The position numbers and the translations under genes are program-made. The notes beneath the pieces were generated by a model. The model searched no databases. It was not told the origin of the DNA and saw nothing but the letters and a program-made list of their open reading frames with translations. A DNA stretch of 64,000 nt. It comes from a virus. The stretch covers positions 7,798 through 71,797 of IMG/VR virus record IMGVR_UViG_3300043777_000056; one strand, given 5' to 3'. Of this stretch, positions 2,887 through 31,795 are shown one piece after another. Numbering within the stretch: position 1 is the first letter of the stretch; the number at the start of each line of letters is the position of its first letter.

Positions 2887-5109
2887 ATGCAGAACCAGCC
2901 GGAAGTCAGCCACGTCACAATCAAACCAGTTCCGGGAATGTTCACGGAACTCACAGCGCGCGGATCACTAGATCGGTGGGTATCTGGTCAGCTAGTTCGC
3001 TTCCATGACGGCCAGCCCCAGAAGATTGGCGGGTGGCAGAACACGCTGTTCACTGGCGGCCCGGTAATCGGCATCCCGCGCTCATCCCATATTTGGAACG
3101 ACCTTAACGGCCAGGAATGGATCGCATTCGGCACTGGCGCAAAGCTATACCTGATAAGCCTGAATGTCCTCTATGACATCACACCACTACGCAGGCAAGT
3201 AGGGCTAGCAGGACCATTCGCTGCCAACGGTACGAATCTGTTGACAGTCACTGATCCATCACATGGCGCTCAGAACGGCGACTGGGTGCGGTTCACTACC
3301 ACGGGCGTTGACAGTAATCCGATTCTTGGTCTGGTGTATTCGGCCAACAACAGTGTAGTCGCCAACACGCCGCTAACGTTGCGCGCTTCGCCGACAGTGT
3401 TCAGCAACACCATTGCCAGTGACTTCACGCTTGTATCGACCAGCAATCTGAGTGGTGTCAACTTCACCATCGTTGGCACTGATTGGCGCGGCAATCCTCA
3501 GGCTGTGACTATCGCAGGCCCCAACAACGGTTCTGTAATCACCAACAGCGAATGGGGCAGCATCATCAGCATTACGCCGAATGCTAGCAACTCTGGACAG
3601 GTGTCTGTAGGCGCTACGACGAATGGCCAGTTCATGGTGCAGAACTCGAATGCCCAGACGTATCAGATTGAGCTTCCTACTGGAGTAGCTGAGGGCACTG
3701 CCAATCTAGGCGGTACTGCGACAGCTCAGTACGACATCACCGCAGGACTTGACAACCAAGGTTTCTATTTCGGATGGGGAGCAGGCACATGGGGACTGGG
3801 AACATGGGGAACAGCCCGTACAGCGGCCAACGGATCTTTTTCGGATATGGTTCAGCCATTGCGGCTGTGGTCCTTAGACAACTGGGGGCAGGGATTGATA
3901 GCTGGAATCCGCAACGGCTCGACGTACTATTGGGATCGAAACACCGGCCCGAACGCGCGAGCGGTAGATATTTCGGTCAACCCTGAATTCCCGAACAATC
4001 CAGGGGCACCAGTGAACAGTCTATGGACGCTGGTGAGCAACACCAACCAGCAGCTGGTCACACTTGGAAGCTCTCATGACGGCATCAACGATGCGCTGTA
4101 CATCGCGATCAGCGATATCGATGACTTTACCGACTTCACTCCGAGCGACACCAATAGCGCCTACACAGGACGCTTGAGCGCTGGATCCAAGATCGTCTCC
4201 GCAGTCAAGACTCGCACCGGCATCCTCGTTGAGACTGATACCGCTGCATTCCTACTGCAGCCTAATGCGTCAACTGTATTCGCCAGCCAGCAAATCGCAG
4301 ATGAGACGACAATCTTGTCTCCGAATGCAGCGATAGACGTCAACGGCACTTGCTACATCATGGGACTTCGCAAGTGGTACGAGTATGACGGCGTGTACCG
4401 CGAGCTTCCTTCCGATGTCTGGTCACAGGTGTGGGGCAAGACGCCTGCCTATCCAGGCATCAACACTGCGATGTTCGACAAAGTATGGACGTGGCACAAC
4501 GACCAGTGGCCTGAAGTATGGTGGTTCTACGTGTCTGCCGGCGGCACCGAGATAGACAGCTACGTCATCCTGAACTACAAGGACAAACACTGGAGCTTCG
4601 GCCAGCTAAGCCGTACCGGCGGCACCAAGAGCAGCACCTTTACTGGATTCCCGATGGCATTCGACACCACGGGCAACATGTACTCACACGAGAATGGCGT
4701 AGATGGACAGACATTCCAGGGCTCGACCATTCCGATTACGAGCTTCGTCACCAGCTACGATATCCAGACCGTGCAGCGCTCCCCGTATGGCGCAGTGACG
4801 CCGGGTCGCGGTCTTGCGTACAACGAAGGTGCCGAGCAGATCCACATCAGCGCGGTCATTCCAGACATCATCTATCAGACCGGGCAGATGACACTGACCA
4901 TCAAGACTAAGCGCTATCCGCAAGGCGCATACGTCATCAAGGGTCCATACTCGATCAATCCAGCCCCGCAGGCGAGCGATCAGAATCAGTTCCTTAGCGT
5001 CCGCGCGCGCGGCAAGCTCGCAAACTTCACCTTTGGCAGCAGTGCGCTTGGCGCTGACTGGCGCATCGGCAACTTCACTTTTCTGACTCAGGACGACGGC
5101 GAGCGATAG
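2887..5109 (+). CDS. Tail nozzle / DNA stabilisation protein (tubular protein B- or P22 gp10-like)
   Basis: 740 aa, beta-rich. VRF...PQKIGGW, WSLDNWG, EVWWFY and RARGK motifs; C-terminal DGER; located after the adaptor. Confidence 0.7.
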   Translation: MQNQPEVSHVTIKPVPGMFTELTARGSLDRWVSGQLVRFHDGQPQKIGGWQNTLFTGGPVIGIPRSSHIWNDLNGQEWIAFGTGAKLYLISLNVLYDITPLRRQVGLAGPFAANGTNLLTVTDPSHGAQNGDWVRFTTTGVDSNPILGLVYSANNSVVANTPLTLRASPTVFSNTIASDFTLVSTSNLSGVNFTIVGTDWRGNPQAVTIAGPNNGSVITNSEWGSIISITPNASNSGQVSVGATTNGQFMVQNSNAQTYQIELPTGVAEGTANLGGTATAQYDITAGLDNQGFYFGWGAGTWGLGTWGTARTAANGSFSDMVQPLRLWSLDNWGQGLIAGIRNGSTYYWDRNTGPNARAVDISVNPEFPNNPGAPVNSLWTLVSNTNQQLVTLGSSHDGINDALYIAISDIDDFTDFTPSDTNSAYTGRLSAGSKIVSAVKTRTGILVETDTAAFLLQPNASTVFASQQIADETTILSPNAAIDVNGTCYIMGLRKWYEYDGVYRELPSDVWSQVWGKTPAYPGINTAMFDKVWTWHNDQWPEVWWFYVSAGGTEIDSYVILNYKDKHWSFGQLSRTGGTKSSTFTGFPMAFDTTGNMYSHENGVDGQTFQGSTIPITSFVTSYDIQTVQRSPYGAVTPGRGLAYNEGAEQIHISAVIPDIIYQTGQMTLTIKTKRYPQGAYVIKGPYSINPAPQASDQNQFLSVRARGKLANFTFGSSALGADWRIGNFTFLTQDDGER

Positions 5110-7038: not shown

Positions 7039-8648
7039 TGAGCGATGTAGGTGCTAACCCAAAACCTGCTGGCGTGGCAAGCATTGGGTACAAGCTTGGT
7101 GCCAGCCCTGTCAACAATGTTGAGCTGGTATCAAGTCCAGGAGTGGCAACCACATTCTTGCGTAGCGATGTCACGCTTGCACTAGACCAGAGTATCAGCC
7201 CGACGATGACTGGCAACTGGACGTTTACGCCCGGTAGCGGCGTAGCAATAGTTGTTAACGAGGTAGTAGGTTCGGACGGCGTACAAATATTTGCAGGCAG
7301 CGGTAGCGCGACAGATAGATCGCTAAACGTCGTCTTTAGCGGACACTACAATCTATTGAACGTTTTTAACGACGGCCACGGCCTACTAGGCTTCAATGGC
7401 AGTGCCAACACTATAACTTGGGCAGCTACCGGAGCTGTCGCAATCGCATCACCACCTACAGCTGTTACCGCGCTTACGATCAATGGCGCTTCTAGCGCTA
7501 CCATAGCGTTACTGAACGGCGCTAATGCTGCTGGCGGGATAGTGACCTTCCAGACTGCTGGGGTCTCATACGCCGATATAGGTACGGGAGTAGCGATTGC
7601 TGCTGGCGCTCCCGCATCAGTCTTTGCGATTTCTGCGCGTGCTGGCAACACCCTGTACCTTTGCGTAGACGGTGGTAATCCAGCGATTCAAATCGCACAG
7701 GCTGGAAACATAACGGTAGTAGCGCCTAGTAGCGGCACGGCAGTTGCTATCAGCGCCAACGATAATACTTCGGCGATGCTCTTTAACGAAGCGTCAGCTA
7801 CAGATGGATACTACATAGGCTTTGAGCAGGTAGGTTCACTTAAAGGCTTGATAGGCGTTGGTCCTATATGCATCACAGGTGCTACTGTAGCATCAACTAA
7901 TTTAGTAGCCGGTATAGCTTCAGCGTCAGATTTCCTTAACTTCAGCGCCAACGGCGGCAGTAGCATACAGATGCAGCTTGCTCCTGCTGGCCTTACTATC
8001 AATACCACCGCCAGCAATAACCAAGGTTTAAGTATCTTGGGTAATTTTGCTTCAGCTCCTGTGGGGTTTAAAGTTGTAAACTCGGCTACCGGCGCAAGTA
8101 CAGCTGCAACAGGCGTCTTCGACATGGGTGACGGGATAAACTTCCTGACCCTGCAATTCCAGAACGCCGGCAACACCGCTAACCCGGAGACAGGTGGCCC
8201 AACCGGGCTTTCGGGGTTGATAGGTACGAACTTCAACGGCCCGCTAAGCCTATTCACGAACGGCGTTGAGCAGATGAGAATTCTTGGGGGTGGTGGCGTT
8301 GTTCACAACTCCATAAGTGGTGTCACTAGTCTTCAGGTTAATGGAGGCCTAGCGCGTCCCGTGACTGCTACGAAAACAGCAAACTATACGATGCTGGTTT
8401 CTGATACATATCTGATCTTCAACGGCTCTGCTTCGATCACGTTGACACTACTATCTGCTTCTAGTTTTCCAGGTCGAGAAGTTCTTGTAAAAACCATAGC
8501 AGCAGAAACAGTTGTTAGCGCCTCATCGAATGTTCGTCCTATCAGTTCTGCAACAGCTGGAACTGCCATTCTTGCGGCAACGGCCGGCGCGTGGGCGCTG
8601 CTGGTCTCGGATGGAACTGATTGGGTTATAATGGCCAATGGAACCTAA
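7038..8648 (+). CDS. Tail fibre / receptor-binding protein
   Basis: Ala/Gly/Ser/Thr-rich. C-terminal TKTANYT...ITLTL...LVSDGTDWVI fibre-tip-type domain. Visibly more A/T-ending codons than its neighbours. Confidence 0.75.
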   Translation: MSDVGANPKPAGVASIGYKLGASPVNNVELVSSPGVATTFLRSDVTLALDQSISPTMTGNWTFTPGSGVAIVVNEVVGSDGVQIFAGSGSATDRSLNVVFSGHYNLLNVFNDGHGLLGFNGSANTITWAATGAVAIASPPTAVTALTINGASSATIALLNGANAAGGIVTFQTAGVSYADIGTGVAIAAGAPASVFAISARAGNTLYLCVDGGNPAIQIAQAGNITVVAPSSGTAVAISANDNTSAMLFNEASATDGYYIGFEQVGSLKGLIGVGPICITGATVASTNLVAGIASASDFLNFSANGGSSIQMQLAPAGLTINTTASNNQGLSILGNFASAPVGFKVVNSATGASTAATGVFDMGDGINFLTLQFQNAGNTANPETGGPTGLSGLIGTNFNGPLSLFTNGVEQMRILGGGGVVHNSISGVTSLQVNGGLARPVTATKTANYTMLVSDTYLIFNGSASITLTLLSASSFPGREVLVKTIAAETVVSASSNVRPISSATAGTAILAATAGAWALLVSDGTDWVIMANGT

Positions 8649-13361: not shown

Positions 13362-16300
13362 ATGGACGTCAACCTGCCTGACGGCACCACCGTTAAGGGT
13401 GTGCCTGATGACATGACTCGGGATCAGTTTGTGCAGAAGGCGAAAGCTAATGGCATGAACATCCCTGATGAATGGCTTGGCGCTTCACAGGTACACGCTC
13501 AACCCACGCAATCTCCGGCCGCTCCTCCGGCCCAAACGTCCAATGAACCAAGCATGGACGAAATCAACCGCCGACACCTTACCAGACAGGGCGATCAGTG
13601 GATAGATCCGACCGCGCCGCGCGATAGAACCAAGGATCCTAACAGCGAATTTGAGAACGTCGTAACCCGCGCCGGTAGCACTCTAGTTGGCATGGCGAAG
13701 GATCTGCCAAACGCTGCTGCCGCGTTGACCGATCCTGAGGCTTTGCTTCGCGGGTCCAATAAGCTCGCCGGCATAATGGGTATGGGAACAGATCCGTTTG
13801 GCGCAACTGCCCGCGCCATGAAGGCCAAGGGTATCGACTATGACCCGGTTCCGGAATGGGCCAAGCATGGCAAGGGTCTCAGCAATGCGATCATGAACAG
13901 CTCCCATGCCTATCAGGATTTCATGGGTGGAGTACAGGACAGGGTAGAGTCGGCGCTTACCCCTTCATTTCGCGATGCTGCCAATAAGCCAATGATGGAG
14001 GGCCTGAGAGACCCTGAATGGTATCTGAATGGTCTCGGAACGGCTGCAGCCTATGCGCTCCCGAGTATAGGTCCAATAGCAACGGCATCCAGACTTGGAT
14101 ATGCCACTCGCATGGCATCGCTCGCCGGGCGTACAGACATGGAGATGGCACAAAAGGTTGCCTCATCCATTGCCGCCGGCCAGAAAGCCGGGGCGGCTGT
14201 TGGTGGTGTGACCAATGCCGCAATCATGGGTGGTCAGACTGGGCAAGAAGTCCGTGACGCGCTGGGCAAGCTAGACGAAGCTACCCTGATGAACTACCCC
14301 GAGTACCGCAAGGCCCGCGAGCAAGGCAAAAGCGATGTCGAGGCTCGCCAGGAATTCATCTCCAATCGCGCTAATGAGGCCACCCTGCTGTCCGGACTCG
14401 CTGCCGAGCTTCCCACCCAGGCTCTAAACAAGTTCATCGCTCATGCCGCCGTAGGCCATGCCATAGCGCGTACGACTGCCGGCGCGGCCCTCAAGGGAAC
14501 CATCGAGGGCGGGGTAGCTGGTGCCCTGGGGATGACCGGAATGGGCACCGTGGAGCGCGCCGAAGAGGACAAGAACAAGGACTTCTATGGTGCGCTGAAG
14601 CAAGCGACCAAGGACGATTCCCTATCCGGAGCCCTATTCGGGGCTGTGATAGGTGGTGGTTTGGCCGGCGGAGCGCATGGTCGCATACCGACCACGCAGG
14701 CAGAAGATCTAGCCAGGGGGGCTGAAAAGGCCAAAACCGCATCCGATGTCCAGAAGGCAATGCAGTCTAAAGCCGACGCAGAGGCCGCTGAAGCGGCCGA
14801 GAAGCGCCAGAAGGCTGGGACAGCGTCTGACCAGGACAGCGGCGCAGCGGGCCGCGCAGAGGCCAAGGCAGAGCGTATAAGCGCCGAGCAGGCACAGGAG
14901 AACCACGAGACGCTAGTCCGTGCTCAGCAAGACTTCATAGCGGCCCATGAGCGAGTGAAAGCAATTGAGGCCCATGTTGCCGATCCTTCGGTGCCGGTCA
15001 ACTACAATGAGCTTGAACGTGCCCGTAACGAGCGGGCAAAGGCGTATGACGATTTCGCTGAGGCTGCCGATTCCGCTGGCATCCTGACAGCAAGGAAACA
15101 AAGCGGGCAGGTACAGAACAATGTCGGGCAAGCAAGCGAAAGATCTAACGAAGGAACCGTTCGACGGGCCGATCAGCGCGGAGACGGGAGCGGACGTGAG
15201 CGGAGTGTCGAACTCGAAGGGCCCAAGCTCGATGGGTCGAGCGCAGACGCGGCGTCATCCGGGAATGAGCGGGTCGGGCGGGAAGTCGAACCGCTGGCAG
15301 GGTCAGGTCGGGGCGCGACCGGAGTCGAACCCGGAGACGGACGGATATCTGGACGTCGGAATCAAGGATCGGAACATCCGCAGCCGCTAGAAGAGGTAGG
15401 CCCTCTTCCAGGCACTGAGGAACAGAAGCGCGGGCGCGTCCTCGACAATGTCGAGGAAACGAAGCTTGGCGGCCCCATGCCGCCACTTGAAGAAACCAAA
15501 AAGGCTCAAGAGACGCATGCCGGCGAGGCAAATGAGCCATCCGCCGCTTCTGAGCGTGACAAGGTCCAGAAGGCACTAGCCGAGCGTCAAGTCTCGAACA
15601 AGCAGTACGCCTCCAACTACGCCGATATCCCTGAAAGCAACCGGGCGCTAACCCCTGATCAGAAGCGGGTCGAAGACCGCATGAAGGCCATAGTGGCTGA
15701 CGTGCCGGCAGCGGAGCAGGCATACTCACAGGTCGCCGGCACCGAGGGCGGCCGGATCATCAATACCGATCTAGCGCGCAAACTCAGCCCTGATTACGAC
15801 AAGGACAATCAGTCTCGCGCGCTGCACTCAAATAGCGTTCAGGAACCATCTTCGTGGCTTGCTGACAAGCTGTATTTCCGTCGCCTAGCTGAACCACCCG
15901 GCGAGTCAAAGACGGTCCTAGCCACTGCTGGCGGTTCTGATTCGGGAAAGTCAATTTCACTGTCCAGTAAAGATGCCAAAAAGGCAGATATCGTTTACGA
16001 CGGTAACATGAACAATCTACCGAAGACCCGGCGCCGCATAAAGGCGGCCCTGGATAGCGGTCGAGATTTTCATATCCAATTCACCTTCCGCGATCCTATC
16101 GCGGCCTGGAAAGAAGGTGTGTTGCCGCGTGCAATGAAATTTGGGCGTACAGTGCCGGCGGAAGCGCATGCTGACACGCATAATGGCAGCTTCAAGACTG
16201 TGATGGCGCTTGCCAAGCAGTACGCAAATGATCCTCGCGTCAAGATCAGTGTAGTGGACGTTGACGACGCCAGCGTGAAGACGCTGCAGGATGTGGCCAA

Positions 16301-19300
16301 GAAACGGTACCACATAACACCGGATGAACTCCGAAAGATAGCGATTGAGGAATACAAGAATGGGCGAATCACAGATACGGTCCTCAGAGGGGTCGCCGGC
16401 CCAGGTGCTGAAAGACTGGCTCGTAGCGGAAAAGATAATGGACGAGTATCCGGAAAGCCAGTGGGAGAAGCAGGTAAAAGAGCAGGTTCCGCTGGCGAAG
16501 CAGGAAAGGGCAATGGAAGAGATTCGTCAGGAGAAGGCGGAGATCGAGCAAAGTCACAAGAAGAAGCTCGACTGGGAGAAGGTGTACCCGGACAGGTACA
16601 AGTAGAACCACTCAAGGGGATGCCGACATCAGTCGATGTCCCCGGCAAAGGCAAGATAGCCTTTGGACCAGAGACACGCGCACAGGCTGCTGCAGCTGAC
16701 TATGCTAAGCGCGCCGGCATCAAGTACGACCCTCCGCGCGACTACAAGAAAGTCAACGTCGATACCGCCAAGCAGATCGCTAAAGCATACGACGAGATGA
16801 AGAATGATCCGACTGATCCAAAGGTCAAGGCATCATACGATGCCCTTATCAAGGAGACACTGGATCAGTTCCAGTCAATCAAGGCCACCGGTCTCAAGAT
16901 TGAATTCATCGAACCTGGGCAGAAGGATCCATACGCTGCGAGCCCGCGTCTTGCGATTATGGATGCCCGCGATAACAATCATCTATGGGTGTATCCGACA
17001 GAGTCAGGCTTTGGCGGAAACGTAGTCAACATAGGTCTTAAAGTCGGAGAAAACGACAAAATCACTCGTGGCGAGGCTGAGGCTGCACTTCGTGCAAAAG
17101 GGGTGGACATAGTCTCCTCTAACGTTCACGAGTCTAACACTGAACCTACGCTGGTTGCGCGTCTCTCGCGACCACTCACTACCAGCGAGGCTCATGATGT
17201 CAGTACCAAGCTTAAACAGGAAAGTATCGCTCAACTTGTAGGCCAAAAGGGCGAGTTGCATGGCCCTAATGCCGAGCAATGGAGGCCATTCAATCCTGAC
17301 TACTTCCTGACCGAGAGCGGAGATGTGCTGTCCAAGGTTCAGCAGAATCCGATGCTTCGCGAGACGGATGAACTGATCGGGGGGCGCCGGCTGCTCGCAA
17401 ATGACGTTTTCCGGATCGTGCATGATTACTTCGGCCACATCAAGGAAGGAATTGGGTTCCGAGCCGATGGCGAAGAGAATGCGTGGCGACAACATGCTGC
17501 TATGTACTCCGATCTAGCGCGCGGCGCGATGACCACTGAAACGCGCGGACAGAACTCTTGGTTGAACTATGGTCCTCACGGCGAAAATAATCGCACCGCG
17601 AAGGCATCAGAGACCATCTATGCCGAACAGAAAGCCGGCCTCCTCCCTGACAGATTCACTGTAGATAGCCCAGAGCCTATCAAGACTGGGGAGAGCGTCG
17701 CTGAGGTATTGCCAGTGTTTCGCGTGGGGTCTGAAGGGACCGAGCGTGAACGCCAGCTCATCTGGGGTGGCAATCCAAAAGATATCCCCTACGCGAATGA
17801 AAAAGACCGTTCTGTCATTGCCGGTGGCGGTATCGATGCCAAAACCAGCGAGGCCATCAAGAGTCACATTCGACAAGAATTTGGGTTTGATGTCCAGATC
17901 GTTAACCATCCTGAAGATGTCCCTTACATTGATCGTTGGGCCGCAGAGAATCTACCAATATCTGCAGTATTCACCGACAACGTAGACGGTGGAACCGTCC
18001 ACTTAATCGCCGGCAACCTGGGCAGCTTCGAGCACGGAGTTACCGCAGCTACCCATGAACTAGTTGGTCACTACGGTACCCGCGCCGTTCTTGGCGGCCG
18101 AGGCAGTGACAACTATAACATCATGATGGATGCCATCACAAGGGCATTCCCTGGTCGCGTTCGCGAGATGGCCATCAAGAACGGCATCAGCATGTCTCAC
18201 CCTGACAAGTCTATACGAGAGATGCGCCGCCGAAGCGCCGCCGAAGAACTGGTTGCATACGCTGCCGAGAAGTCAATCGATGGCAAGCGCTTGCGTCCCG
18301 GCATGTTCCAGCAGATCGTCGATATGTTCCGGAGCTTTCTGCGCAACATCGGCGTTCTGAAGACCGCCAACGAATCAGATATCGCGAGTTTGATTGATCG
18401 CAGTGCCGATTACGTACGCCGGGGCGGTGCGGAAAGAATGCGGACCCGCGACCAGATCTCTCTTGATATAAGCGGCCAGCCGCGCGAATACGCCTTCCAG
18501 ACGAACGACAAGACCAGTTACCGCGTCAACCTTCCATCTGTAGAGCACTCATTCGATGAGACCGGGGAACACCGGCTATCGACTTCTGCCGGCGAGATGC
18601 TGGCGCAGGAGAGCGGGAAATACCTGAATGTGAAGCGCTCAGATGTCGAGAGCGCGGCACGCGGGCAAGGCCACGGCGTGGCGATGCTTGAGAAAGCGGC
18701 TAGCGTTGCCTTTGAGCGCGGACTTAAGCTTGGATCGGACATAAGCGTATCACCGTCTGCGGCTCGCCTTTACGATGCTCTTGAGAGACGTGGCTACGAG
18801 GTTACCCGCAATCCCGCAGACATCAGCGAGACTACCGGAAACTACGTGAGCCGCGATCATCGTGTACCGGTGTTCGAGGTAGCGCCACAGCAGAGCTACA
18901 AGGTAGGCAGGGAGAAGACGGCGCGCGATATCCTGGGCGAGGTAGCAAGTCATCTTACCAAGGAAGAAAAGGCCAAGCTCACGCGAGTATCGGCTGAAAA
19001 GGTACTTGATGTATTCAAAAACCTGCCAGATGCCAAGGAGTTTGCTTCCGCTGCGCTTGCTGGCAAAGCTAAGCGCGGCTGGTATCGAGAGAGCGCCAAA
19101 GCCATAGCCAACGTATTCGGTCCAGATGGACCGCGCTTTACCGCCTTACTATCAGCCATGAGTCCGCGGGTTAGCGTCGAGATGAACCTGCACAATGCCT
19201 TGCATACCTTCATCAACTGGGACAAGGCCGGACGTCCTCAGAAGCGCGGCGAGATCGTCAAGATAATGGGCGACTCAGTGTTGGGTGACCAGGGGAAGAA

Positions 19301-22300
19301 CAGCGTTCTAGGCGCTTGGATACCAAACGCAGTTCGCGCACTTACTCACGCCGAGCCAGAGAACCTTAACCTTAGCGGGCCAAAGGTCAATTCCTTCATG
19401 CGTAACCTACAGGGACACGTTCACGAAGTGACTCTGGATGCCTGGATGGCAAACTTCGCCAAGATAGATCAACGACTATTCGCCGGTAGTTTGAAAGCTA
19501 ACGGCGTGGATCCTGGCAAGCGCCCAGGGTACCTTGGTTACTCCGCCCGCGTGCGCGAAGCCGCCAAGATGGTATCCAGGATAACTGGTGAGAAGTGGAC
19601 GCCGGCCGAGATCCAGGAGACAATATGGTCATGGGCCAAGACAGCATACGAAACTGCAGACTCATACGGCGGCTTAGGAAGCGTGCCGGAGCTTGTGCGC
19701 AACAAGGAAATTACCGATGAACTCATCCGAAGCACTCCAGACTTTAAGACCCTCTTCCACTCCGAAGCCTACGAGCCAGTCCTCCGTGGGGCGGGATACG
19801 GTGACCGCCTTGACGAACTACGCGCAGCGAACGAAGCAGACGAGCAACGAGCTGCAAGCAAAGCGGAGCCGCCTGTTAGCCGCGCTCTCCAAAAGCACCT
19901 TGAAGCAGCCGCAGAGCGGCTAGAGTCTCTTCGTCAGGAAGTCAACGAGTCGCGCATCTCGACTCGACGCGCGCGCCAAACAGAGCGCCGACGCAATCCA
20001 AATCAGCAGCAAATGTTCAGCGTGTCAAAACCTGACTCGCCGGAACAGGCCGCGTTTCTTGCAAAGATCAATCCCGAGTCTCACGACACTAGACCACTAA
20101 AGGAAAAGATCGGAGAATTCCTCCATGGCGTCCAGCAAGGGGTATTCAACGAGTTTCATGGCATAGAAAGTTCGTTTAAACAATACGGCGGTGAAGGCCC
20201 CAACCTAGGATTCATGAAGGCCGAGCTGACCCGTAACGCCGGTCAACTACTGTCATCCGCCATCAAAGATGGTGTCCCTATTTGGCGCCAGGGTGAGGTT
20301 GGTCTAGATACCTCTGCCGGGGGCTACCAGGATATTCTAGCGCCACTTGGCAGTAAGGTCGAGGACTGGTACAACGCTCGCGTTGCGCGACGTGCCGCAC
20401 GTCTATACGAAGAAGGTCGAGAGCACAACTTCACTCCCGAAGAGATTGCGGCCGGCAATCGTTTGTGGGATCAGCATCCTGAGTTTGAAAAGGCCTTCCA
20501 GAAGCGCGCTGAATTCTCGCGTCGCATACTAGACTTCGCGGAGCAGGCCGGCATTATCGATGGCGAGGGTAGAAAAACCTGGGAGAACGCCGACCACGTT
20601 CCATTCTATCGATTGATGGGGGATACGGGAGACATCACTGGCGCGACCGCAGGCCGCAGTATAGGTCGCCAGAAAGAACAGATCAAGCGCCTCAAGGGCG
20701 GTGCCGCGCCAATTGCCGATCCTATGACCAGCGAACTCCAGAACTGGGGCTCGCTCATGAAAGCGTCATTGCACAACATGGCTGTGACCCGCGTTATAGA
20801 TGATATGCGGCATCTACAGATGGAAGATGGGCGCCCAGTGATAGAGGCTGGCCGTGCCTCTACCGACATCAAGATCTCGAAAGAAGAATACAAGCAGCGC
20901 CTACTTGATACCGGCGTTGATCCAAAGAGCCTGGACCACAATACTTTCGAGCATCTATACAGCCTGCAGCACGGACAACCCGAAGAACCTAACACCATAT
21001 GGCAGATGGTGAACGGAAAGAAGGTCTACTGGAAAGTGAATGACGAGATGCTTTTCCAGTCTCTGGCGAATCTGAACAATGGCGGCCAGTCTGAATTCAT
21101 GAAGTTCTGGTCCAAGTGGGTAGGCGCTCCCGCGCGCCTACTGCGCAAGACCATTGTCAACACTCCGGTATTCGCGGCCAAGATTGCAGTGCGCCATACC
21201 CAATACCTATGGGTAACCGGCCGGTATGGCTCGAAGTCTATCTCGCCTGAATTCGTGCCTCTACTGAATTCTGTTCAGGGCTTCTGGTCAATCATGCGCA
21301 ATAGCGAGGAAGCCAAACAGTGGAAGGCTGCTGGAGGCCTCTTCAGTGACGCTATGAGCTACGGAGAGCCGGTCAACGCGGCGCGTAGGCTCAAGATGCG
21401 TCTAGCCGCCAAGAGCGTCCCTGGGACCGTCCTAAGCAGCCTGACAGCGGTTGCTGACTTCTACCATCGCTTTCTGAACGCCGCTGAGGGCATGAACCGT
21501 ATCGCGATTGCCAACTCCTCGCTTAAAGCCGGAGCATCCAGAACGCAGGCGGCCCACGCGGCACGCAAGGTTCTGGACTACACCCAGAAGGGAAACCACT
21601 GGGCAATCAAGATGGCGATCACTTCCATTCCATTCACAACTGGACACTTAGCCGGTCTCGACGCCCTCAAGAAGTCCATGATGACGAATCCAACCGGGTT
21701 CCTATTCCGTGGCGGACTGCTCGCCGCTGGAGCCGTGGCTTACGCCGCGATGAACCAGAAGAACCCGGACTATTTAGCCCTGACTGATGACCAGAAGACG
21801 AACTACTTCCACTTCTTCAATGTCTTCAAGCAGGGCGACCATTGGCAGATCCCGAAGTCCTTCGAGGACGGCGCGATCTTCGTGACCATCCCAGAGGCCA
21901 TTACCAACTACGCCCTGTCGAGCGATAATGACCGCCTGCGTCAGGCCGCAAATCTGGCTGGTCACTCTCTCAAACAAGCGTTCGAGTACGATTACATGCC
22001 GACCGAGATCAGGCCGATCTACGATCTGGCAACCAACACCCAGCACTATAGCGGGGCGCCAGTACTGAGCCAACAGGATCTTGACGTGGCCCCTCAGCAG
22101 CAGGATGCGCCATACGTCAGTCCTACATTGCGCATGTTCGCGCAGAACATGCCTGATGCAGCTCCGGACTGGCTAAAGTCTCCCAAACAGGTTCAGTTTT
22201 TGGCGAGCAGTTATATCGGCACCATGGGTCAATACGTCACCGCTATAACAGATGCGATGATTCGTCAGGCCCAGGGTGTGACCGCGCCCGCGCGCCCGAA

Positions 22301-22784
22301 CGCTGTCGCCGGCCTACCGTCTGTCAACCAGATCTACAAGGTTGGGCCGTCATTGCGCACCAAGTACACGGACAGCATGTACACGGTGGCCAAAAACATT
22401 GCACAGATTTCCGCGACCGAGAAGAAGATGGAAGCCGGCGATGAGGGTAAGAAGGTCATGGACTACAATCGCGAACATGCGTTCGAGCTTGGCGTGAAGT
22501 CGAGCTATGACGCCGCTACCAAGCAAGTGGCCCAGATCCGTCACTACATCCTCCAGGTCCAGCAAGATAAGAACTTGAATCCACAGGATAAAGAGGATCG
22601 CATCGAGAAGGCGCAAGAGTCGATTAACAAGATCGCTGAACAGCTCTACAAGCTACGCCCAGGCGGTCCCCTCGACAAGACATCTCACAAATTGATAGGC
22701 GCTACCCTACCTCAGAAGGTAGGCGTGCTACAGTCTGCCGGACTCCCTGCGACGGCTTCTTTGATACGAGACATGGCGGCATAG
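13362..22784 (+). CDS. Giant polyvalent ejection protein (3140 aa): zeta-toxin-like P-loop kinase, LPD-type domain, zincin-like metallopeptidase, GNAT, HhH-glycosylase-like domain, LPD38-like C-terminus
   Basis: GGSDSGKS Walker A plus RAMKFGRTVP; FRIVHDYFGH; HELVGHYG; ARGQGHG...SPSAARLY; GWY...SAMSP...GPKVNSF...TLDAWM...IQETIW; WQIPKSFEDG. Confidence 0.85.
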   Translation: MDVNLPDGTTVKGVPDDMTRDQFVQKAKANGMNIPDEWLGASQVHAQPTQSPAAPPAQTSNEPSMDEINRRHLTRQGDQWIDPTAPRDRTKDPNSEFENVVTRAGSTLVGMAKDLPNAAAALTDPEALLRGSNKLAGIMGMGTDPFGATARAMKAKGIDYDPVPEWAKHGKGLSNAIMNSSHAYQDFMGGVQDRVESALTPSFRDAANKPMMEGLRDPEWYLNGLGTAAAYALPSIGPIATASRLGYATRMASLAGRTDMEMAQKVASSIAAGQKAGAAVGGVTNAAIMGGQTGQEVRDALGKLDEATLMNYPEYRKAREQGKSDVEARQEFISNRANEATLLSGLAAELPTQALNKFIAHAAVGHAIARTTAGAALKGTIEGGVAGALGMTGMGTVERAEEDKNKDFYGALKQATKDDSLSGALFGAVIGGGLAGGAHGRIPTTQAEDLARGAEKAKTASDVQKAMQSKADAEAAEAAEKRQKAGTASDQDSGAAGRAEAKAERISAEQAQENHETLVRAQQDFIAAHERVKAIEAHVADPSVPVNYNELERARNERAKAYDDFAEAADSAGILTARKQSGQVQNNVGQASERSNEGTVRRADQRGDGSGRERSVELEGPKLDGSSADAASSGNERVGREVEPLAGSGRGATGVEPGDGRISGRRNQGSEHPQPLEEVGPLPGTEEQKRGRVLDNVEETKLGGPMPPLEETKKAQETHAGEANEPSAASERDKVQKALAERQVSNKQYASNYADIPESNRALTPDQKRVEDRMKAIVADVPAAEQAYSQVAGTEGGRIINTDLARKLSPDYDKDNQSRALHSNSVQEPSSWLADKLYFRRLAEPPGESKTVLATAGGSDSGKSISLSSKDAKKADIVYDGNMNNLPKTRRRIKAALDSGRDFHIQFTFRDPIAAWKEGVLPRAMKFGRTVPAEAHADTHNGSFKTVMALAKQYANDPRVKISVVDVDDASVKTLQDVAKKRYHITPDELRKIAIEEYKNGRITDTVLRGVAGPGAERLARSGKDNGRVSGKPVGEAGKRAGSAGEAGKGNGRDSSGEGGDRAKSQEEARLGEGVPGQVQVEPLKGMPTSVDVPGKGKIAFGPETRAQAAAADYAKRAGIKYDPPRDYKKVNVDTAKQIAKAYDEMKNDPTDPKVKASYDALIKETLDQFQSIKATGLKIEFIEPGQKDPYAASPRLAIMDARDNNHLWVYPTESGFGGNVVNIGLKVGENDKITRGEAEAALRAKGVDIVSSNVHESNTEPTLVARLSRPLTTSEAHDVSTKLKQESIAQLVGQKGELHGPNAEQWRPFNPDYFLTESGDVLSKVQQNPMLRETDELIGGRRLLANDVFRIVHDYFGHIKEGIGFRADGEENAWRQHAAMYSDLARGAMTTETRGQNSWLNYGPHGENNRTAKASETIYAEQKAGLLPDRFTVDSPEPIKTGESVAEVLPVFRVGSEGTERERQLIWGGNPKDIPYANEKDRSVIAGGGIDAKTSEAIKSHIRQEFGFDVQIVNHPEDVPYIDRWAAENLPISAVFTDNVDGGTVHLIAGNLGSFEHGVTAATHELVGHYGTRAVLGGRGSDNYNIMMDAITRAFPGRVREMAIKNGISMSHPDKSIREMRRRSAAEELVAYAAEKSIDGKRLRPGMFQQIVDMFRSFLRNIGVLKTANESDIASLIDRSADYVRRGGAERMRTRDQISLDISGQPREYAFQTNDKTSYRVNLPSVEHSFDETGEHRLSTSAGEMLAQESGKYLNVKRSDVESAARGQGHGVAMLEKAASVAFERGLKLGSDISVSPSAARLYDALERRGYEVTRNPADISETTGNYVSRDHRVPVFEVAPQQSYKVGREKTARDILGEVASHLTKEEKAKLTRVSAEKVLDVFKNLPDAKEFASAALAGKAKRGWYRESAKAIANVFGPDGPRFTALLSAMSPRVSVEMNLHNALHTFINWDKAGRPQKRGEIVKIMGDSVLGDQGKNSVLGAWIPNAVRALTHAEPENLNLSGPKVNSFMRNLQGHVHEVTLDAWMANFAKIDQRLFAGSLKANGVDPGKRPGYLGYSARVREAAKMVSRITGEKWTPAEIQETIWSWAKTAYETADSYGGLGSVPELVRNKEITDELIRSTPDFKTLFHSEAYEPVLRGAGYGDRLDELRAANEADEQRAASKAEPPVSRALQKHLEAAAERLESLRQEVNESRISTRRARQTERRRNPNQQQMFSVSKPDSPEQAAFLAKINPESHDTRPLKEKIGEFLHGVQQGVFNEFHGIESSFKQYGGEGPNLGFMKAELTRNAGQLLSSAIKDGVPIWRQGEVGLDTSAGGYQDILAPLGSKVEDWYNARVARRAARLYEEGREHNFTPEEIAAGNRLWDQHPEFEKAFQKRAEFSRRILDFAEQAGIIDGEGRKTWENADHVPFYRLMGDTGDITGATAGRSIGRQKEQIKRLKGGAAPIADPMTSELQNWGSLMKASLHNMAVTRVIDDMRHLQMEDGRPVIEAGRASTDIKISKEEYKQRLLDTGVDPKSLDHNTFEHLYSLQHGQPEEPNTIWQMVNGKKVYWKVNDEMLFQSLANLNNGGQSEFMKFWSKWVGAPARLLRKTIVNTPVFAAKIAVRHTQYLWVTGRYGSKSISPEFVPLLNSVQGFWSIMRNSEEAKQWKAAGGLFSDAMSYGEPVNAARRLKMRLAAKSVPGTVLSSLTAVADFYHRFLNAAEGMNRIAIANSSLKAGASRTQAAHAARKVLDYTQKGNHWAIKMAITSIPFTTGHLAGLDALKKSMMTNPTGFLFRGGLLAAGAVAYAAMNQKNPDYLALTDDQKTNYFHFFNVFKQGDHWQIPKSFEDGAIFVTIPEAITNYALSSDNDRLRQAANLAGHSLKQAFEYDYMPTEIRPIYDLATNTQHYSGAPVLSQQDLDVAPQQQDAPYVSPTLRMFAQNMPDAAPDWLKSPKQVQFLASSYIGTMGQYVTAITDAMIRQAQGVTAPARPNAVAGLPSVNQIYKVGPSLRTKYTDSMYTVAKNIAQISATEKKMEAGDEGKKVMDYNREHAFELGVKSSYDAATKQVAQIRHYILQVQQDKNLNPQDKEDRIEKAQESINKIAEQLYKLRPGGPLDKTSHKLIGATLPQKVGVLQSAGLPATASLIRDMAA
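15121..15390 (+). CDS. Candidate nested ORF (+1 frame) upstream of the zeta-like domain
   Basis: ATG-to-TAG 89 aa with mostly G/C-ending codons. The host frame here is G/R-rich with CGA/GGA/AGA codons. Weak RBS. Confidence 0.4.
   Translation: MSGKQAKDLTKEPFDGPISAETGADVSGVSNSKGPSSMGRAQTRRHPGMSGSGGKSNRWQGQVGARPESNPETDGYLDVGIKDRNIRSR
16360..16605 (+). CDS. Nested ORF (+1 frame, 81 aa) directly after the zeta-like domain; candidate antitoxin
   Basis: GAGGA RBS before the ATG. Charged helical product with GAG/AAG/CAG/CTG codons, while the host frame becomes an A-ending GGA/GAA/AGA linker. Confidence 0.6.
   Translation: MGESQIRSSEGSPAQVLKDWLVAEKIMDEYPESQWEKQVKEQVPLAKQERAMEEIRQEKAEIEQSHKKKLDWEKVYPDRYK
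19717..19923 (+). CDS. Candidate nested ORF (+1 frame, 68 aa) after the HhH-like domain
   Basis: AAGGA RBS upstream of the ATG; helical basic C-terminal half. Confidence 0.35.
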   Translation: MNSSEALQTLRPSSTPKPTSQSSVGRDTVTALTNYAQRTKQTSNELQAKRSRLLAALSKSTLKQPQSG

Positions 22785-23056: not shown

Positions 23057-23506
23057 ATGGAACTCGGTACCGCCGGCACAAAACTAATTCAGTCCTTCGA
23101 GCAGTGCAGACTGACTGCTTACCAGGATCAGCGCGGTATCTGGACCGTGGGCTGGGGGCACACTGGGCACGAGGTAGTGCCGGGTCTAGTATGGACCCAG
23201 GAACAGGCTGACTCCACCTTCAAGCTGGACACCGTTATCGCAGTTGCCTGCGTGAATCATTCGGTAACCGCCCCGGTGAATCAAGCGGAATTCGACGCCA
23301 TGGTATCTCTGTGTTTCAACATCGGCATCGGAAATTTTCATAACTCAAGCTTTGTCAAAGCCATGAACTCTGGCGCCGGGCCCCAGGCCGAGCACGATAC
23401 CTTCGTGGAATGGGATCACACAAACTCACGAGTCAATCCAGGTCTTGACATGCGCCGGCAGCAGGAGTGGCGACTGTTCAGCACCGGAAAATCGGTGTTC
23501 GGATGA
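23057..23506 (+). CDS. Endolysin, GH24 lysozyme
   Basis: FEQCRLTAYQDQRGIWTVGWGHT (E-x8-D-x5-T triad), FDAMVSLCFNIG, GLDMRRQQE. Confidence 0.95.
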   Translation: MELGTAGTKLIQSFEQCRLTAYQDQRGIWTVGWGHTGHEVVPGLVWTQEQADSTFKLDTVIAVACVNHSVTAPVNQAEFDAMVSLCFNIGIGNFHNSSFVKAMNSGAGPQAEHDTFVEWDHTNSRVNPGLDMRRQQEWRLFSTGKSVFG

Positions 23507-23742: not shown

Positions 23743-24062
23743 AGAAGGCTGAGATAATTAAGCAGTCTATACAGTGGGTAAGGGATAACAAGGAAAGAAG
23801 ACGCGCATACATGCGTCGATACAAAGGATTACCTGAACCTACGCGCCCCGAGCCTGATAATTGTGAATGTTGTGGGCAACCAGAGATAAGAAAAAGAGCA
23901 CTAGCCCTAGATCATGATCACCGTACCGGAGCTTTTCGTGGATGGTTATGCACAAGATGTAACCATGCGCTTGGCAATCTCGGCGACGATATTCATGGTG
24001 TGTTAAGATTGCTATCGTACATGGAAAGATCCAGGAATCCACCAGATGAGTCTAGTAAGTGA
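23667..24062 (+). CDS. Endonuclease VII-family homing endonuclease
   Basis: CECCG...LALDHDHRTGAFRGWLCTRCNHALG; AT-rich. Start codon uncertain (GTG chosen). Confidence 0.85.
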   Translation: MARRSSERRKKYQREYRRRVYKDPVKKAEIIKQSIQWVRDNKERRRAYMRRYKGLPEPTRPEPDNCECCGQPEIRKRALALDHDHRTGAFRGWLCTRCNHALGNLGDDIHGVLRLLSYMERSRNPPDESSK

Positions 24063-29883: not shown

Positions 29884-29912
29884 TTGCTCGAAGTTCGCAA
29901 CTAGTGTACAGT
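29884..29912 (+). promoter_or_regulatory. Sigma70-type promoter of the primase-helicase
   Basis: TTGCTC-N17-TACAGT in the divergent intergenic region. Confidence 0.6.
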
Positions 29913-29935
29913 CCGCGCCTTCATTCGGAGTGTGC

Positions 29936-31795
29936 ATGTCACAACTGAAAGCGTCGGAGATAGCAGATCGGTTAGCGGCTCAAGCTGAGAGCGTGGTCCG
30001 AGAACTGCTCCCCGGCGGCAAGGTCCATGGTCACGAATGGTGCGTCGGCTCAATCAACGGTGAGGCCGGCGAATCACTGAAAGTGCAGCTCCAGGGAGAC
30101 CGCGTTGGCAAGTGGAAAGACTTCGCCAGCAGCGAGAAGGGCGGGGATCTATTAGACCTTTGGGCCGCATCTCGCGGCTGCGACATTGGTACAGCCATCC
30201 GCCAAGCCAAGGACTTTCTCGGGATCCGAGATCCTGTTGTCGAAGAAGCTGGTATACGCAAGAGCTACAAGAAGGTCGAGCGCGACAAGAGTATTCGCAG
30301 CGTCTCCAAACATCCGGTTGTGTTGACGTGGCTAACAAAACACCGGCTCACTGACAAGTCCATCAAGGCATACAAGATAGCGGCCAAGGATTCGGACACG
30401 CTGGCCTTCCCCTTCATGCGCTGTGGCGACGATACAGAAGTCGTCCATATGCAGTACAGAACCCTTAAAAAGAAGGGGTTTTGGGCATCAGAAGGGACTG
30501 AGATGATTCTATTCGGATGGCAGGCAATGCCGCCCATGGCGCGCGAAGTGATCATATGCGAGGGAATGAAAGATGCAATGTCGTGGTACGAATACGGCTA
30601 CAATGCCCTATCTGTTCCAGCTGGCGGTGGCGGTAACGGAAAACAGAATGGATGGCTGGCGAGCGAGTACGATAACCTTGCTCGCTTCGACAAAATCTAT
30701 CTGTCTATGGATGCCGACAAGGCTGGGCAAGAAGCGCTTGCAACCATTGTTGAGCGACTTGGACGCCATCGCTGCTTCATTATCAGACTGCCGGAAGGCA
30801 AGAACGACATCAACGACTGCCTGAAGGATCAGGTAGCGCCAGAGATCATCCATATGCGCGTAAAGAACGCGCGCACCCTGGACCCATCCAGTCTGGTCAA
30901 CATCGGTGACTTCACCAAGGAAATCATTGAACAGTTCCATCCGCCGGGCGGAAAGACGCAGGGCATCCTCAGTCCATTCGAGGATCACGTAGGGTGCTTC
31001 GAGTTTCCGCTTGGCGCCACGACCATACTGGTCGGACGCAACGGCGGGGGCAAGTCAACACTCGCCGGCCAGATCATTCTGGATGCCTGCAACCAGAACT
31101 TCAACTGCTGCGTAGCCAGTCTCGAATTTCGTGTTGCCAAGTACGCTAGCTGGATCATCCGCCAAGGTACGTGTGCCAACACACCAAGCCCGAGCCGTAT
31201 TCAGCAGGCCAACGAGAAACTGGCTGAGCATCTATGGGCGTTCAGTCCGGATAGTAAGTCCGGTCACGGCTCCGCTAAGGTGGAGAAGATCATTGAGACC
31301 TTCGAGTACGCTGCTGCGCGCTATGGCTGCAAGCTATTCGTGTTGGACAACTTCTCCAAGCTAGTGTTCAGCGGCAAGGACGAACTAAAGGATCAAAAGG
31401 ATGCGATCACTCTGATCACAGAGTTTGCCGTCCAGTCCAATGTACATGTTCTTGTCGTGGCTCACCCTCGCAAGTCGTCCAGTAGCGACTCAGGAGATGT
31501 CAGCTCCATGGATGTACGCGGGCACGGCGCACTTACAGATCTCCCGGACAGTGTACTGATCCATACGCGCAACAAGCGCAAGGAACTGATGTTCAAGGAT
31601 CGCGCTACATGGAATGAGTTGCCGGCGGATGAGCAGCAGCGTATAAGGAATCAACCGGATGCGTGGCTCAAGTGTGAGAAACAGCGGCACTACAACGGCA
31701 CCGGGGACGGTGAGCCGTTGATACAGCTATACTTTGATCACGAGTCGCGTCAATTCACCAAGCTGATGAACGGAATGCCGAAGGAATACTTGTAA
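29936..31795 (+). CDS. Primase-helicase (TOPRIM + SF4 helicase, T7 gp4/Twinkle-like)
   Basis: IICEGMKDAMS, MDADKAG, KNDIND; Walker A GRNGGGKS; VLDN; VVAHPRK; GGAG RBS. Confidence 0.92.
   Translation: MSQLKASEIADRLAAQAESVVRELLPGGKVHGHEWCVGSINGEAGESLKVQLQGDRVGKWKDFASSEKGGDLLDLWAASRGCDIGTAIRQAKDFLGIRDPVVEEAGIRKSYKKVERDKSIRSVSKHPVVLTWLTKHRLTDKSIKAYKIAAKDSDTLAFPFMRCGDDTEVVHMQYRTLKKKGFWASEGTEMILFGWQAMPPMAREVIICEGMKDAMSWYEYGYNALSVPAGGGGNGKQNGWLASEYDNLARFDKIYLSMDADKAGQEALATIVERLGRHRCFIIRLPEGKNDINDCLKDQVAPEIIHMRVKNARTLDPSSLVNIGDFTKEIIEQFHPPGGKTQGILSPFEDHVGCFEFPLGATTILVGRNGGGKSTLAGQIILDACNQNFNCCVASLEFRVAKYASWIIRQGTCANTPSPSRIQQANEKLAEHLWAFSPDSKSGHGSAKVEKIIETFEYAAARYGCKLFVLDNFSKLVFSGKDELKDQKDAITLITEFAVQSNVHVLVVAHPRKSSSSDSGDVSSMDVRGHGALTDLPDSVLIHTRNKRKELMFKDRATWNELPADEQQRIRNQPDAWLKCEKQRHYNGTGDGEPLIQLYFDHESRQFTKLMNGMPKEYL

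Follow-up and report, generated by a model that had tools for sequence, protein, structure and literature searches.

We analyzed a 64,000-nucleotide (nt) stretch of viral DNA (positions 7,798 to 71,797 of the IMG/VR virus record IMGVR_UViG_3300043777_000056; hereafter, the window), concentrating on an 81-codon open reading frame (ORF) that is nested, in the +1 frame, within a giant gene of the same strand and lies directly behind the part of that gene encoding a zeta-toxin-type kinase domain. The giant gene (13362..22784, plus strand) comprises 3140 codons in one reading frame (frame 0), and its product, as given by the ORF list and its translation, is referred to as P0001. Matches to the Pfam families Zeta_toxin (residues 873–967), DUF7178 (residues 1902–2089), and LPD38 (residues 2802–2973) in this single ORF show that several unrelated conflict domains, including one of the LPD type, are combined in one polypeptide, the hallmark by which we recognize it as a phage "large polyvalent protein."

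The kinase domain and the layout of the nested ORF

The domain encoded at 15699..16424 (plus strand; P0001 residues 780–1021) is, judging from sequence profiles and a structure model, a zeta-type P-loop kinase of the ng_zeta1 subclass. The Zeta_toxin match exceeds the curated Pfam cutoff (26.7 versus 22.3 bits; E = 4.4e-6) and ends at residue 967. In the AlphaFold2 (AF2) model of alignment A1, residues 1–242 are folded and correspond to the kinase domain, with predicted local distance difference test (pLDDT) values averaged over ten-residue blocks of mostly 78–96 and dips to 48–60 at residues 31–50 and to 65 at residues 231–240. The 6 best Foldseek matches of the kinase model were all chains of ng_zeta1 (6EPH/6EPG/6EPI; E = 6e-12 to 4e-11, TMq 0.60–0.64), followed by zeta (3Q8X, 1GVN), PezT (2P5T), and AvrRxo1 (4Z8T). 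The kinase profile likewise matched ng_zeta1 among the PDB sequences (E = 3e-8), making this kinase the closest to the domain studied here by both profile and fold. The catalytic Asp56 and the P-loop Lys115 of ng_zeta1 (PMC5923241) align with D24 and K84 of A1 (P0001 residues 803 and 863), neither of which varies among the 5 sequences, and in both proteins the catalytic Asp precedes the P-loop Lys. The kinase domain is basic (pI 8.7–9.5).

The nested ORF was called by the program from a TTG at 16345 to 16605 (86 residues); counted from the ATG at 16360 to the TAG at 16603–16605 (plus strand), it encodes 81 residues, MGESQ...YPDRYK. A Shine–Dalgarno (SD)-like GAGGA at 16347..16351 (plus strand) lies 8 nt 5′ of the ATG. 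The initial annotation had described a GAGGA-N8-ATG start, the MGESQ N-terminus, and the position directly behind the zeta-type domain, all of which are present in the sequence. Lying wholly inside the giant gene, in another frame and with its own start codon and ribosome-binding site, the ORF has the layout of an embedded same-strand gene. It falls into 2 parts (both plus strand): codons 1–16 (16360..16407) overlap the last helix of the kinase domain in frame 0 (A1 residues 226–242), and here frame 0 dominates selection, whereas in codons 17–81 (16408..16602; hereafter, the core) selection follows the +1 frame. The pattern GAGGA-N5-9-ATG/GTG occurs at just 2 sites in the whole 9.4-kb gene, the second of which opens an ORF of 9 codons. 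The open +1 frame extends no more than 6 codons (in the window and in the related locus L003) to 21 codons (in L001 and L002; see below) upstream of the nested start. Most of the nearby gene starts (7038, 8661, 9028, 10448, 13362, 22788, and 23057) are preceded by no clear SD sequence within 25 nt, and the nested ORF is among those with the best.

Conservation of the +1 frame in related loci

Of the 8000 candidates scored in a protein search restricted to the region, 92 reached E ≤ 0.001; the four relatives P0003 to P0006 are 53–67% identical across the kinase module. Three related loci were available as DNA, namely L001, an IMG/VR contig that carries the sequence of P0005, and the metagenome contigs L002 and L003, with the window as the fourth sequence. 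They came from a pattern search based on alignment A1, which returned 1 locus from 96 matches in viral contigs, 2 loci from 120 matches in metagenome contigs, and no related locus from 52 matches in genome contigs. No locus emerged from the single-protein search of viral contigs; blastn at a distant setting against phages matched the downstream domain only; and a degenerate DNA pattern of the conserved C-terminus recovered the L001 contig again among viral contigs and nothing among genome contigs.

The initial annotation had named homologs lacking an open +1 frame as evidence against a nested gene; the frame is open in all 3 related loci, and the encoded peptides are 51–57% identical to that of the window, with conservative substitutions. 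All 4 peptides end in ...YP[DE]RYK* at a common position. The start codon likewise occupies one shared position in the 4 DNA sequences, as ATG in the window and L003 and as GTG in L001 and L002, and GAGGA(G) stands 7–8 nt before it in each.

A profile of the 4 peptides searched with HMMER against 1.84 billion representative proteins retrieved only P0094, P0095, and a weakly matching repeat protein, P0096; neither an in-frame fused form nor a stand-alone family outside this clade was recovered by this search. P0094 is a stand-alone call of 81 residues on a 666-bp contig, for which the gene caller picked the identical start, and P0095 is a stand-alone call of 56 residues on a 2446-bp contig, starting at Met27. 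Met27 was considered as the sole start and rejected, since selection on the +1 frame begins at codon 17, upstream of this invariant residue.

For relatives known as proteins, we asked by dynamic programming over synonymous codons whether the frame-0 protein can encode the +1 peptide, a procedure that demonstrates compatibility only. Among the 92 long proteins, high scores at the right spacing were confined to P0001 and P0003 to P0006 (96–104 and 113–130 for the two peptide blocks, versus 99.99th percentiles of 58 and 67). In the protein-only relatives P0003, P0004, and P0006, frame 0 is thus compatible with both the +1 peptide and its stop (96–104 and 113–124), and no other protein among the 20 best listed had both blocks at the right spacing.

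Codon phase and codon usage across the nested ORF

To compare the frames, nucleotide differences were pooled over the 6 pairs formed by the 4 DNA sequences and sorted by frame-0 codon position. In the upstream kinase domain, positions 1, 2, and 3 differed in 186, 132, and 377 of 682 cases, respectively, the third position being the most variable (0.55), whereas in the nested core the corresponding counts were 126, 103, and 57 of 387, with position 3 the least variable (0.15) and position 1, which is the wobble position of the +1 frame, the most variable (0.33). The reversal of phase was seen in 6 of 6 pairs, with Fisher p values (position 3 versus position 1) of 0.003–0.098, which exceed 0.05 in 3 of them. 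The switch falls at nested codon 17: differences at positions 1/2/3 were 0.06/0.08/0.54 in codons 1–8, 0.31/0.19/0.42 in codons 9–16, and 0.32/0.10/0.08 in codons 17–26.

The changed codons behave accordingly. Read in frame 0, the changed core codons comprise 1–3 synonymous versus 18–38 nonsynonymous changes, and read in the +1 frame, 6–10 versus 8–28; between L001 and L002, the +1 frame shows 10 synonymous and 8 nonsynonymous changes and frame 0 shows 3 and 18. The BLOSUM score is highest in the +1 frame for all 6 pairs. In the 5 more distant pairs, nucleotide identity is 0.69–0.77 in the core versus 0.58–0.66 in the kinase domain, the higher identity of the core being what double constraint would predict. 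Of 392 sliding 30-codon windows spanning the gene, 150 could be evaluated against L001 and L002, and 7 of these departed from the normal pattern, including 4 within residues 1008–1085; the other 3 were at 35–41% amino acid identity. The sole segment in which position 3 is the least variable lies at residue 1055.

Codon usage gives the same picture, and the view put forward in the initial annotation, that the codons of the nested ORF fit the genome and that the coding signal switches frames here, is borne out. Across 16408–16602, the +1 frame scores 0.257 bits/codon with a G+C content at third codon positions (GC3) of 0.75, and frame 0 scores 0.057 with a GC3 of 0.23. For reference, windows in the real frame elsewhere in the gene score 0.291 ± 0.104, the mean GC3 of the gene is 0.61, and the +1 frame elsewhere in the gene scores −0.665 ± 0.230, with a maximum of 0.017 (293 windows). 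Together, the comparisons show the signature of purifying selection on the +1 frame from codon 17 to the stop.

Two other sources of such a signal were examined and rejected: antisense coding, as no antisense frame is open in all 4 sequences, and an RNA element, as there was no Rfam match. In the window, an antisense ORF of 194 codons does run across the nested gene and the final part of the kinase domain (16070–16654, minus strand); it is interrupted by stops in L001 and L002 and is not conserved.

The frame-0 reading of the same bases

In frame 0, the stretch reads GPGAERLARSGKDNGRVSGKPVGEAGKRAGSAGEAGKGNGRDSSGEGGDRAKSQEE, a low-complexity sequence rich in G, E, A, R, and K, which agrees with the earlier description of the main frame as a low-complexity linker. 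The AF2 model leaves the G/E/A/R-rich linker of P0001 residues 1024–1085 (16431..16616, plus strand; A1 residues 245–306) disordered, with pLDDT below 50 throughout, block means of 28–32 from residue 251 onward, and no secondary structure.

Re-encoding tests, which used the codon usage of the gene itself and 20,000 resamplings each, separate the two frames. Given the +1 peptide, frame 0 would stay open with a probability of only 0.0007–0.0076; it is nevertheless open in all 4 DNA sequences and in the 3 protein-only relatives. Given the frame-0 protein, the +1 frame stays open with a probability of 0.03–0.22, and its openness alone is not rare; that the nested ORF is more than a chance product follows from the conservation of its start position, its stop, and the phase switch in 3 of 3 related loci. 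According to the model and the sequence comparisons, frame 0 here shows the properties of a disordered spacer that is kept open with the identity of its residues nearly free. Because the +1 frame carries the codon phase, the codon usage, and the conservation, and frame 0 is kept open against the odds, the segment 16360–16605 is, on comparative grounds, dual-coding DNA in which both frames are selected.

The nested stop as a module boundary

The nested stop (16603..16605, plus strand) also marks a module boundary of the giant protein. In BLASTP comparisons of P0001 with P0003, P0004, P0005, and P0006, homology breaks at residues 1081–1083, that is, at the codon of the nested stop, and each relative continues with a different module. 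The swapped modules carried by relatives of the giant protein include GGDEF, PF18760, PF18834, and others. The alignments thus indicate that modules are shuffled at a fixed junction behind the nested stop (16606 onward). As the homology to 4 relatives breaks at this point, they also show a pattern of the kinase and the small gene being inherited as one cassette that ends at the nested stop. The occurrence of the peptide only with this kinase clade, together with the coincidence of the boundary with its stop, links the small gene specifically to the kinase module and not to the giant protein as a whole.

In P0003 (residues 933–1089) and P0004 (residues 1021–1214), the insert that immediately follows the nested stop contains a GGDEF domain (PF00990); the window is without these inserts.

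Properties of the 81-residue peptide

The peptide is hydrophilic and mildly acidic (pI 5.2–5.9). Its AF2 model contains helices at residues 13–29, 32–42, and 45–75 and is of low confidence (pLDDT 68; predicted template modeling score 0.30). Searches for relatives beyond the clade were largely fruitless. Pfam at E ≤ 10 gave nothing for 6 members except a chance-level match to EOS1 in 1 of them, and PHROG gave no match. In the PDB, 4 chains matched the peptide profile at E ≤ 10, all of them unrelated; epsilon, PezA, and ng_epsilon1 (1GVN, 2P5T, 3Q8X, 6EPG) were not among them. Foldseek against the PDB with the low-confidence peptide model found no match at E ≤ 0.001, tblastn of the peptide against 50,697 phage records found none at E ≤ 1, and a word-indexed search of proteins of near length produced no candidate relative. 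The ESM Atlas returned unnamed clusters at 0.89–0.90, a recognition below the stated mark and hence a lead only. A complex prediction for the kinase (A1 residues 1–225) and the peptide (alignment A3) scored 0.00 against a mark of 0.32; run without controls, it counts neither way.

A short motif at nested codons 25–37 (16432–16470), I-M-D-x-[FY]-P-E-S-x-W, is reminiscent of the helix-turn motif found in repeats of the BamD/YbgF type. The matches concerned, namely P0096 (E = 1.2e-4, through 5 repeat stretches), PDB entry 9hiv (E = 1), and a BamD-family cluster of the ESM Atlas (0.88), are all below evidence level, as is the motif resemblance itself.

Of the proposal in the initial annotation that an epsilon-like antitoxin is nested in the toxin gene, one half is supported: there is a nested coding frame with its own SD sequence and start codon. 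The likeness to epsilon is not supported, given the lack of Pfam, PHROG, and PDB-profile matches and the different gene order.

Possible role and origin of the nested gene

The explanation that, taken as a whole, we regard as probable is that the ORF represents a separately translated nested partner gene of the kinase. The late mRNA of the giant gene would serve as the template for both products: ribosomes that initiate at the start codon of the 81-codon gene, behind its own ribosome-binding site (GAGGA), would translate it in the +1 frame, and those in frame 0 would turn the stretch into a disordered spacer between the kinase domain and the module that follows. Such an arrangement could have arisen when a kinase gene read through the small partner gene behind it and so became joined to downstream modules. 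The acidic helical product would then act on the adjoining basic kinase domain, its likeliest function being that of an antidote holding the kinase inactive in the cell that is assembling virions. Our confidence differs among the parts of this scheme. Initiation independent of the reading of the giant gene is, from the start signals, the part we hold with slightly more assurance than the whole, whereas the predicted role of the small protein as a kinase inhibitor acting in the virion-producing cell is tentative, falling somewhat short of an even chance. As codon usage and GC3 fit the +1 frame and not frame 0, the small gene may be the older reading and the linker the newer one. A bolder version, which we consider a little more doubtful than the inhibitor role, is that the small gene was the original immunity gene of a mobile zeta-kinase cassette and was swallowed, the "linker" being a by-product of read-through in another frame.

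Several observations weigh against this scheme. As to the start, the alternation of ATG and GTG follows automatically from an Asn(AAT)-to-Ser(AGT) replacement in frame 0; AAT to AGT is the only one-step path from Asn to Ser, so that conservation of the start is weaker than it looks. A conserved Glu-Glu in frame 0 also partly forces the GAGGA, initiation in the host may not be mainly SD-led, the other genes of the phage mostly being without a strong SD sequence, and the JGI gene call for P0095 begins at Met27 rather than at codon 1. As to conservation, L001 and L002 are close (87–96% nucleotide identity in this region), and the 4 DNA sequences are not independent, because of which the per-pair tests overstate the support; furthermore, distant zeta-bearing relatives such as P0007 are not among the 20 best proteins listed in the compatibility test. 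As to function, the peptide shows no homology to a known antitoxin or named family in Pfam, PHROG, the PDB profile search, or the ESM Atlas, its fold model is weak, and the gene order is unlike that of epsilon/zeta operons. The unlikeness to epsilon is not decisive against an antidote role, since antitoxins of zeta kinases can have unrelated folds.

The first alternative accepts a real, separately translated nested gene and assigns its product a role unrelated to kinase inhibition, either as a factor acting on the host or as one that assists the giant protein in folding, packaging, or ejection. All the evidence for the reality of the gene applies to it alike, and the peptide's lack of likeness to any antitoxin and the likeness of its [FY]-P-E-S-x-W motif to BamD/YbgF-type repeats, which recurs three times below evidence level, would suit it. 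It accounts less readily for a peptide that is found only with this kinase clade and whose stop is the cassette boundary, and we rate it as unlikely, if less so than the other alternatives.

The initial annotation had itself offered a programmed +1 frameshift as an alternative. In that case, some ribosomes would shift between approximately 16342 and 16407 and terminate at 16605, producing a short isoform made up of the N-terminal portion of approximately 1010 residues, with the kinase in it, and a conserved helical tail of approximately 65 residues, and others would complete the 3140-residue protein. The short open +1 stretch upstream of the start (6–21 codons) and the onset of selection at codon 17 are explained equally well by such a shift. 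Moreover, all 4 sequences carry, at nested codons 9–11, a rare Arg codon, AGA or AGG, that leads into a GGGG run (CTC AGA GGG G/TTC AGG GGA/TTC AGG GGC); AGA and AGG make up 5% and 4%, respectively, of the Arg codons of the giant gene, and rare AGR codons can promote +1 shifts. A frameshift has no need, however, of a start codon and a well-spaced SD sequence at one position in 4 of 4 sequences. From a reading of the sequences against known shift sites, no canonical heptamer is conserved, and the P-site codon varies between CTC and TTC and would not re-pair in the +1 frame. That the profile search recovered neither a fused form nor a separate family beyond the clade favors neither model. In phages, +1 frameshifts are rare relative to embedded genes, and we regard this alternative as improbable, although for the mode of initiation it is the main competitor.

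Finally, the possibility that the ORF is not a gene but a by-product of a purine-rich low-complexity linker, conserved through frame 0 or an RNA element, has in its favor that an open +1 frame is not rare given the frame-0 protein (0.03–0.22) and that the ORF list contains several more alternative-frame ORFs of 60–90 codons in the giant gene, yet it is barely tenable against third positions of frame 0 that are the most conserved in the core, frame-0 residues that change freely, codon usage that fits the +1 frame, a conserved start and stop, no Rfam match, and no antisense frame kept open.

Comparison with known systems

Embedded phage genes, as well as small immunity ORFs behind phage toxin domains, are already known. 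In phage lambda, the spanin genes Rz and Rz1 are embedded, and Rz1 is a lipoprotein with a signal sequence that works with Rz in lysis. The nested partner gene proposed here resembles this pair in being a small same-strand +1 gene with its own start wholly inside a larger gene, an arrangement from which both products are made in lambda. It differs in having as its host a 9.4-kb gene for a polyvalent virion protein, in its predicted product, a helical peptide that is soluble and charged, and in the disordered spacer that the host frame encodes over it. Among zeta toxins, EzeT of Escherichia coli, reportedly described by Rocker and Meinhart in 2015, is said to possess a cis-acting antitoxin domain. 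In both cases the antidote, putative in ours, and the zeta kinase would lie within the span of one gene; in EzeT the antidote is an in-frame domain of the same polypeptide, whereas the one proposed here would be made as a polypeptide of its own, read from another frame.

The closest kinase, ng_zeta1 of Neisseria gonorrhoeae (PDB 6EPG/6EPH/6EPI), is encoded with ng_epsilon1 in a bicistronic operon of two separate genes, and the report on this pair shows that the epsilon fold is not common to all antitoxins of zeta kinases (PMC5923241). The peptide described here is without detectable sequence likeness to ng_epsilon1 or epsilon. Whereas the antitoxin genes of the epsilon and PezA type lie upstream in a bicistronic operon, the small gene is located, nested, at the 3′ end of the kinase domain.

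Polyvalent proteins of phages and conjugative elements have been described as giant, multidomain, virion-delivered proteins, with a zeta-toxin-like kinase and the phage-only LPD38 among their domains (Iyer et al. 2017, PMC5512222). The giant protein of the window likewise combines a zeta-toxin-like kinase with LPD38, but nested genes in linkers are not described in the main text of that work, where the words "frameshift" and "overlapping" occur 0 times. In MuF polymorphic toxins of temperate phages, a small immunity ORF is found downstream of the toxin (Jamet et al. 2017, PMC5576092, the main text of which does not contain the word "Zeta"). Both systems place a toxin domain on a phage structural-type protein with a small ORF immediately behind it; in MuF toxins the small ORF follows the stop of the toxin gene, whereas here the toxin frame reads on for another 2,000 codons. 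A literature search covering passages of main texts found no nested gene in a polyvalent-protein linker behind a zeta domain, and of the papers on overlapping genes that were listed, none dealt with polyvalent proteins or zeta kinases.

The arrangement has consequences for annotation: gene callers disallow a gene lying fully inside another on the same strand, and the 81-residue protein is absent from annotation except for two short contig fragments. A linker that looks featureless can mask a gene that is under selection in another frame, which alters how linkers and domain boundaries are read, and the cassette boundary at the nested stop supplies a concrete model for the movement of a toxin module and its partner between polyvalent proteins. 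Should the product inhibit a kinase of the ng_zeta1 type, zeta kinases would have a third kind of antitoxin, unrelated to the other two, which could also be used to study these enzymes. If the swallowed-gene origin were to hold generally, partner genes would lie hidden in many of the low-complexity linkers found in polyvalent proteins of phages and plasmids, and a toxin with a nested antidote would be an unrecognized form of toxin–antitoxin packaging, invisible to annotation pipelines.

Other features of the giant gene and a distant kinase

A second +1-frame ORF of the giant gene, with 89 codons from its ATG (15121–15390, plus strand), covers a low-complexity linker (residues ~587–676) 5′ of the kinase domain. 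Its codon scores are close to 0 in both frame 0 and the +1 frame, its GC3 is 0.77–0.82 in the +1 frame versus 0.58–0.63 in frame 0, and its own translation is of low complexity. A tblastn search of phage records with the kinase domain gave one distant match at 30% identity, in the siphovirus MW202577.1, where the zeta-like domain closes an 878-residue protein annotated as "thymidylate kinase." There, an unannotated 40-codon ORF starting with ATG (~29900–30022 of MW202577.1, corresponding to 3677–3799 of locus L005) overlaps the last 20 nt of the kinase gene in the +1 frame; it is without a clear SD sequence, and its product is basic, unlike the 81-residue peptide. Downstream of the giant gene in the window lie an endolysin gene at 23057 and a spanin-like gene at 24046.

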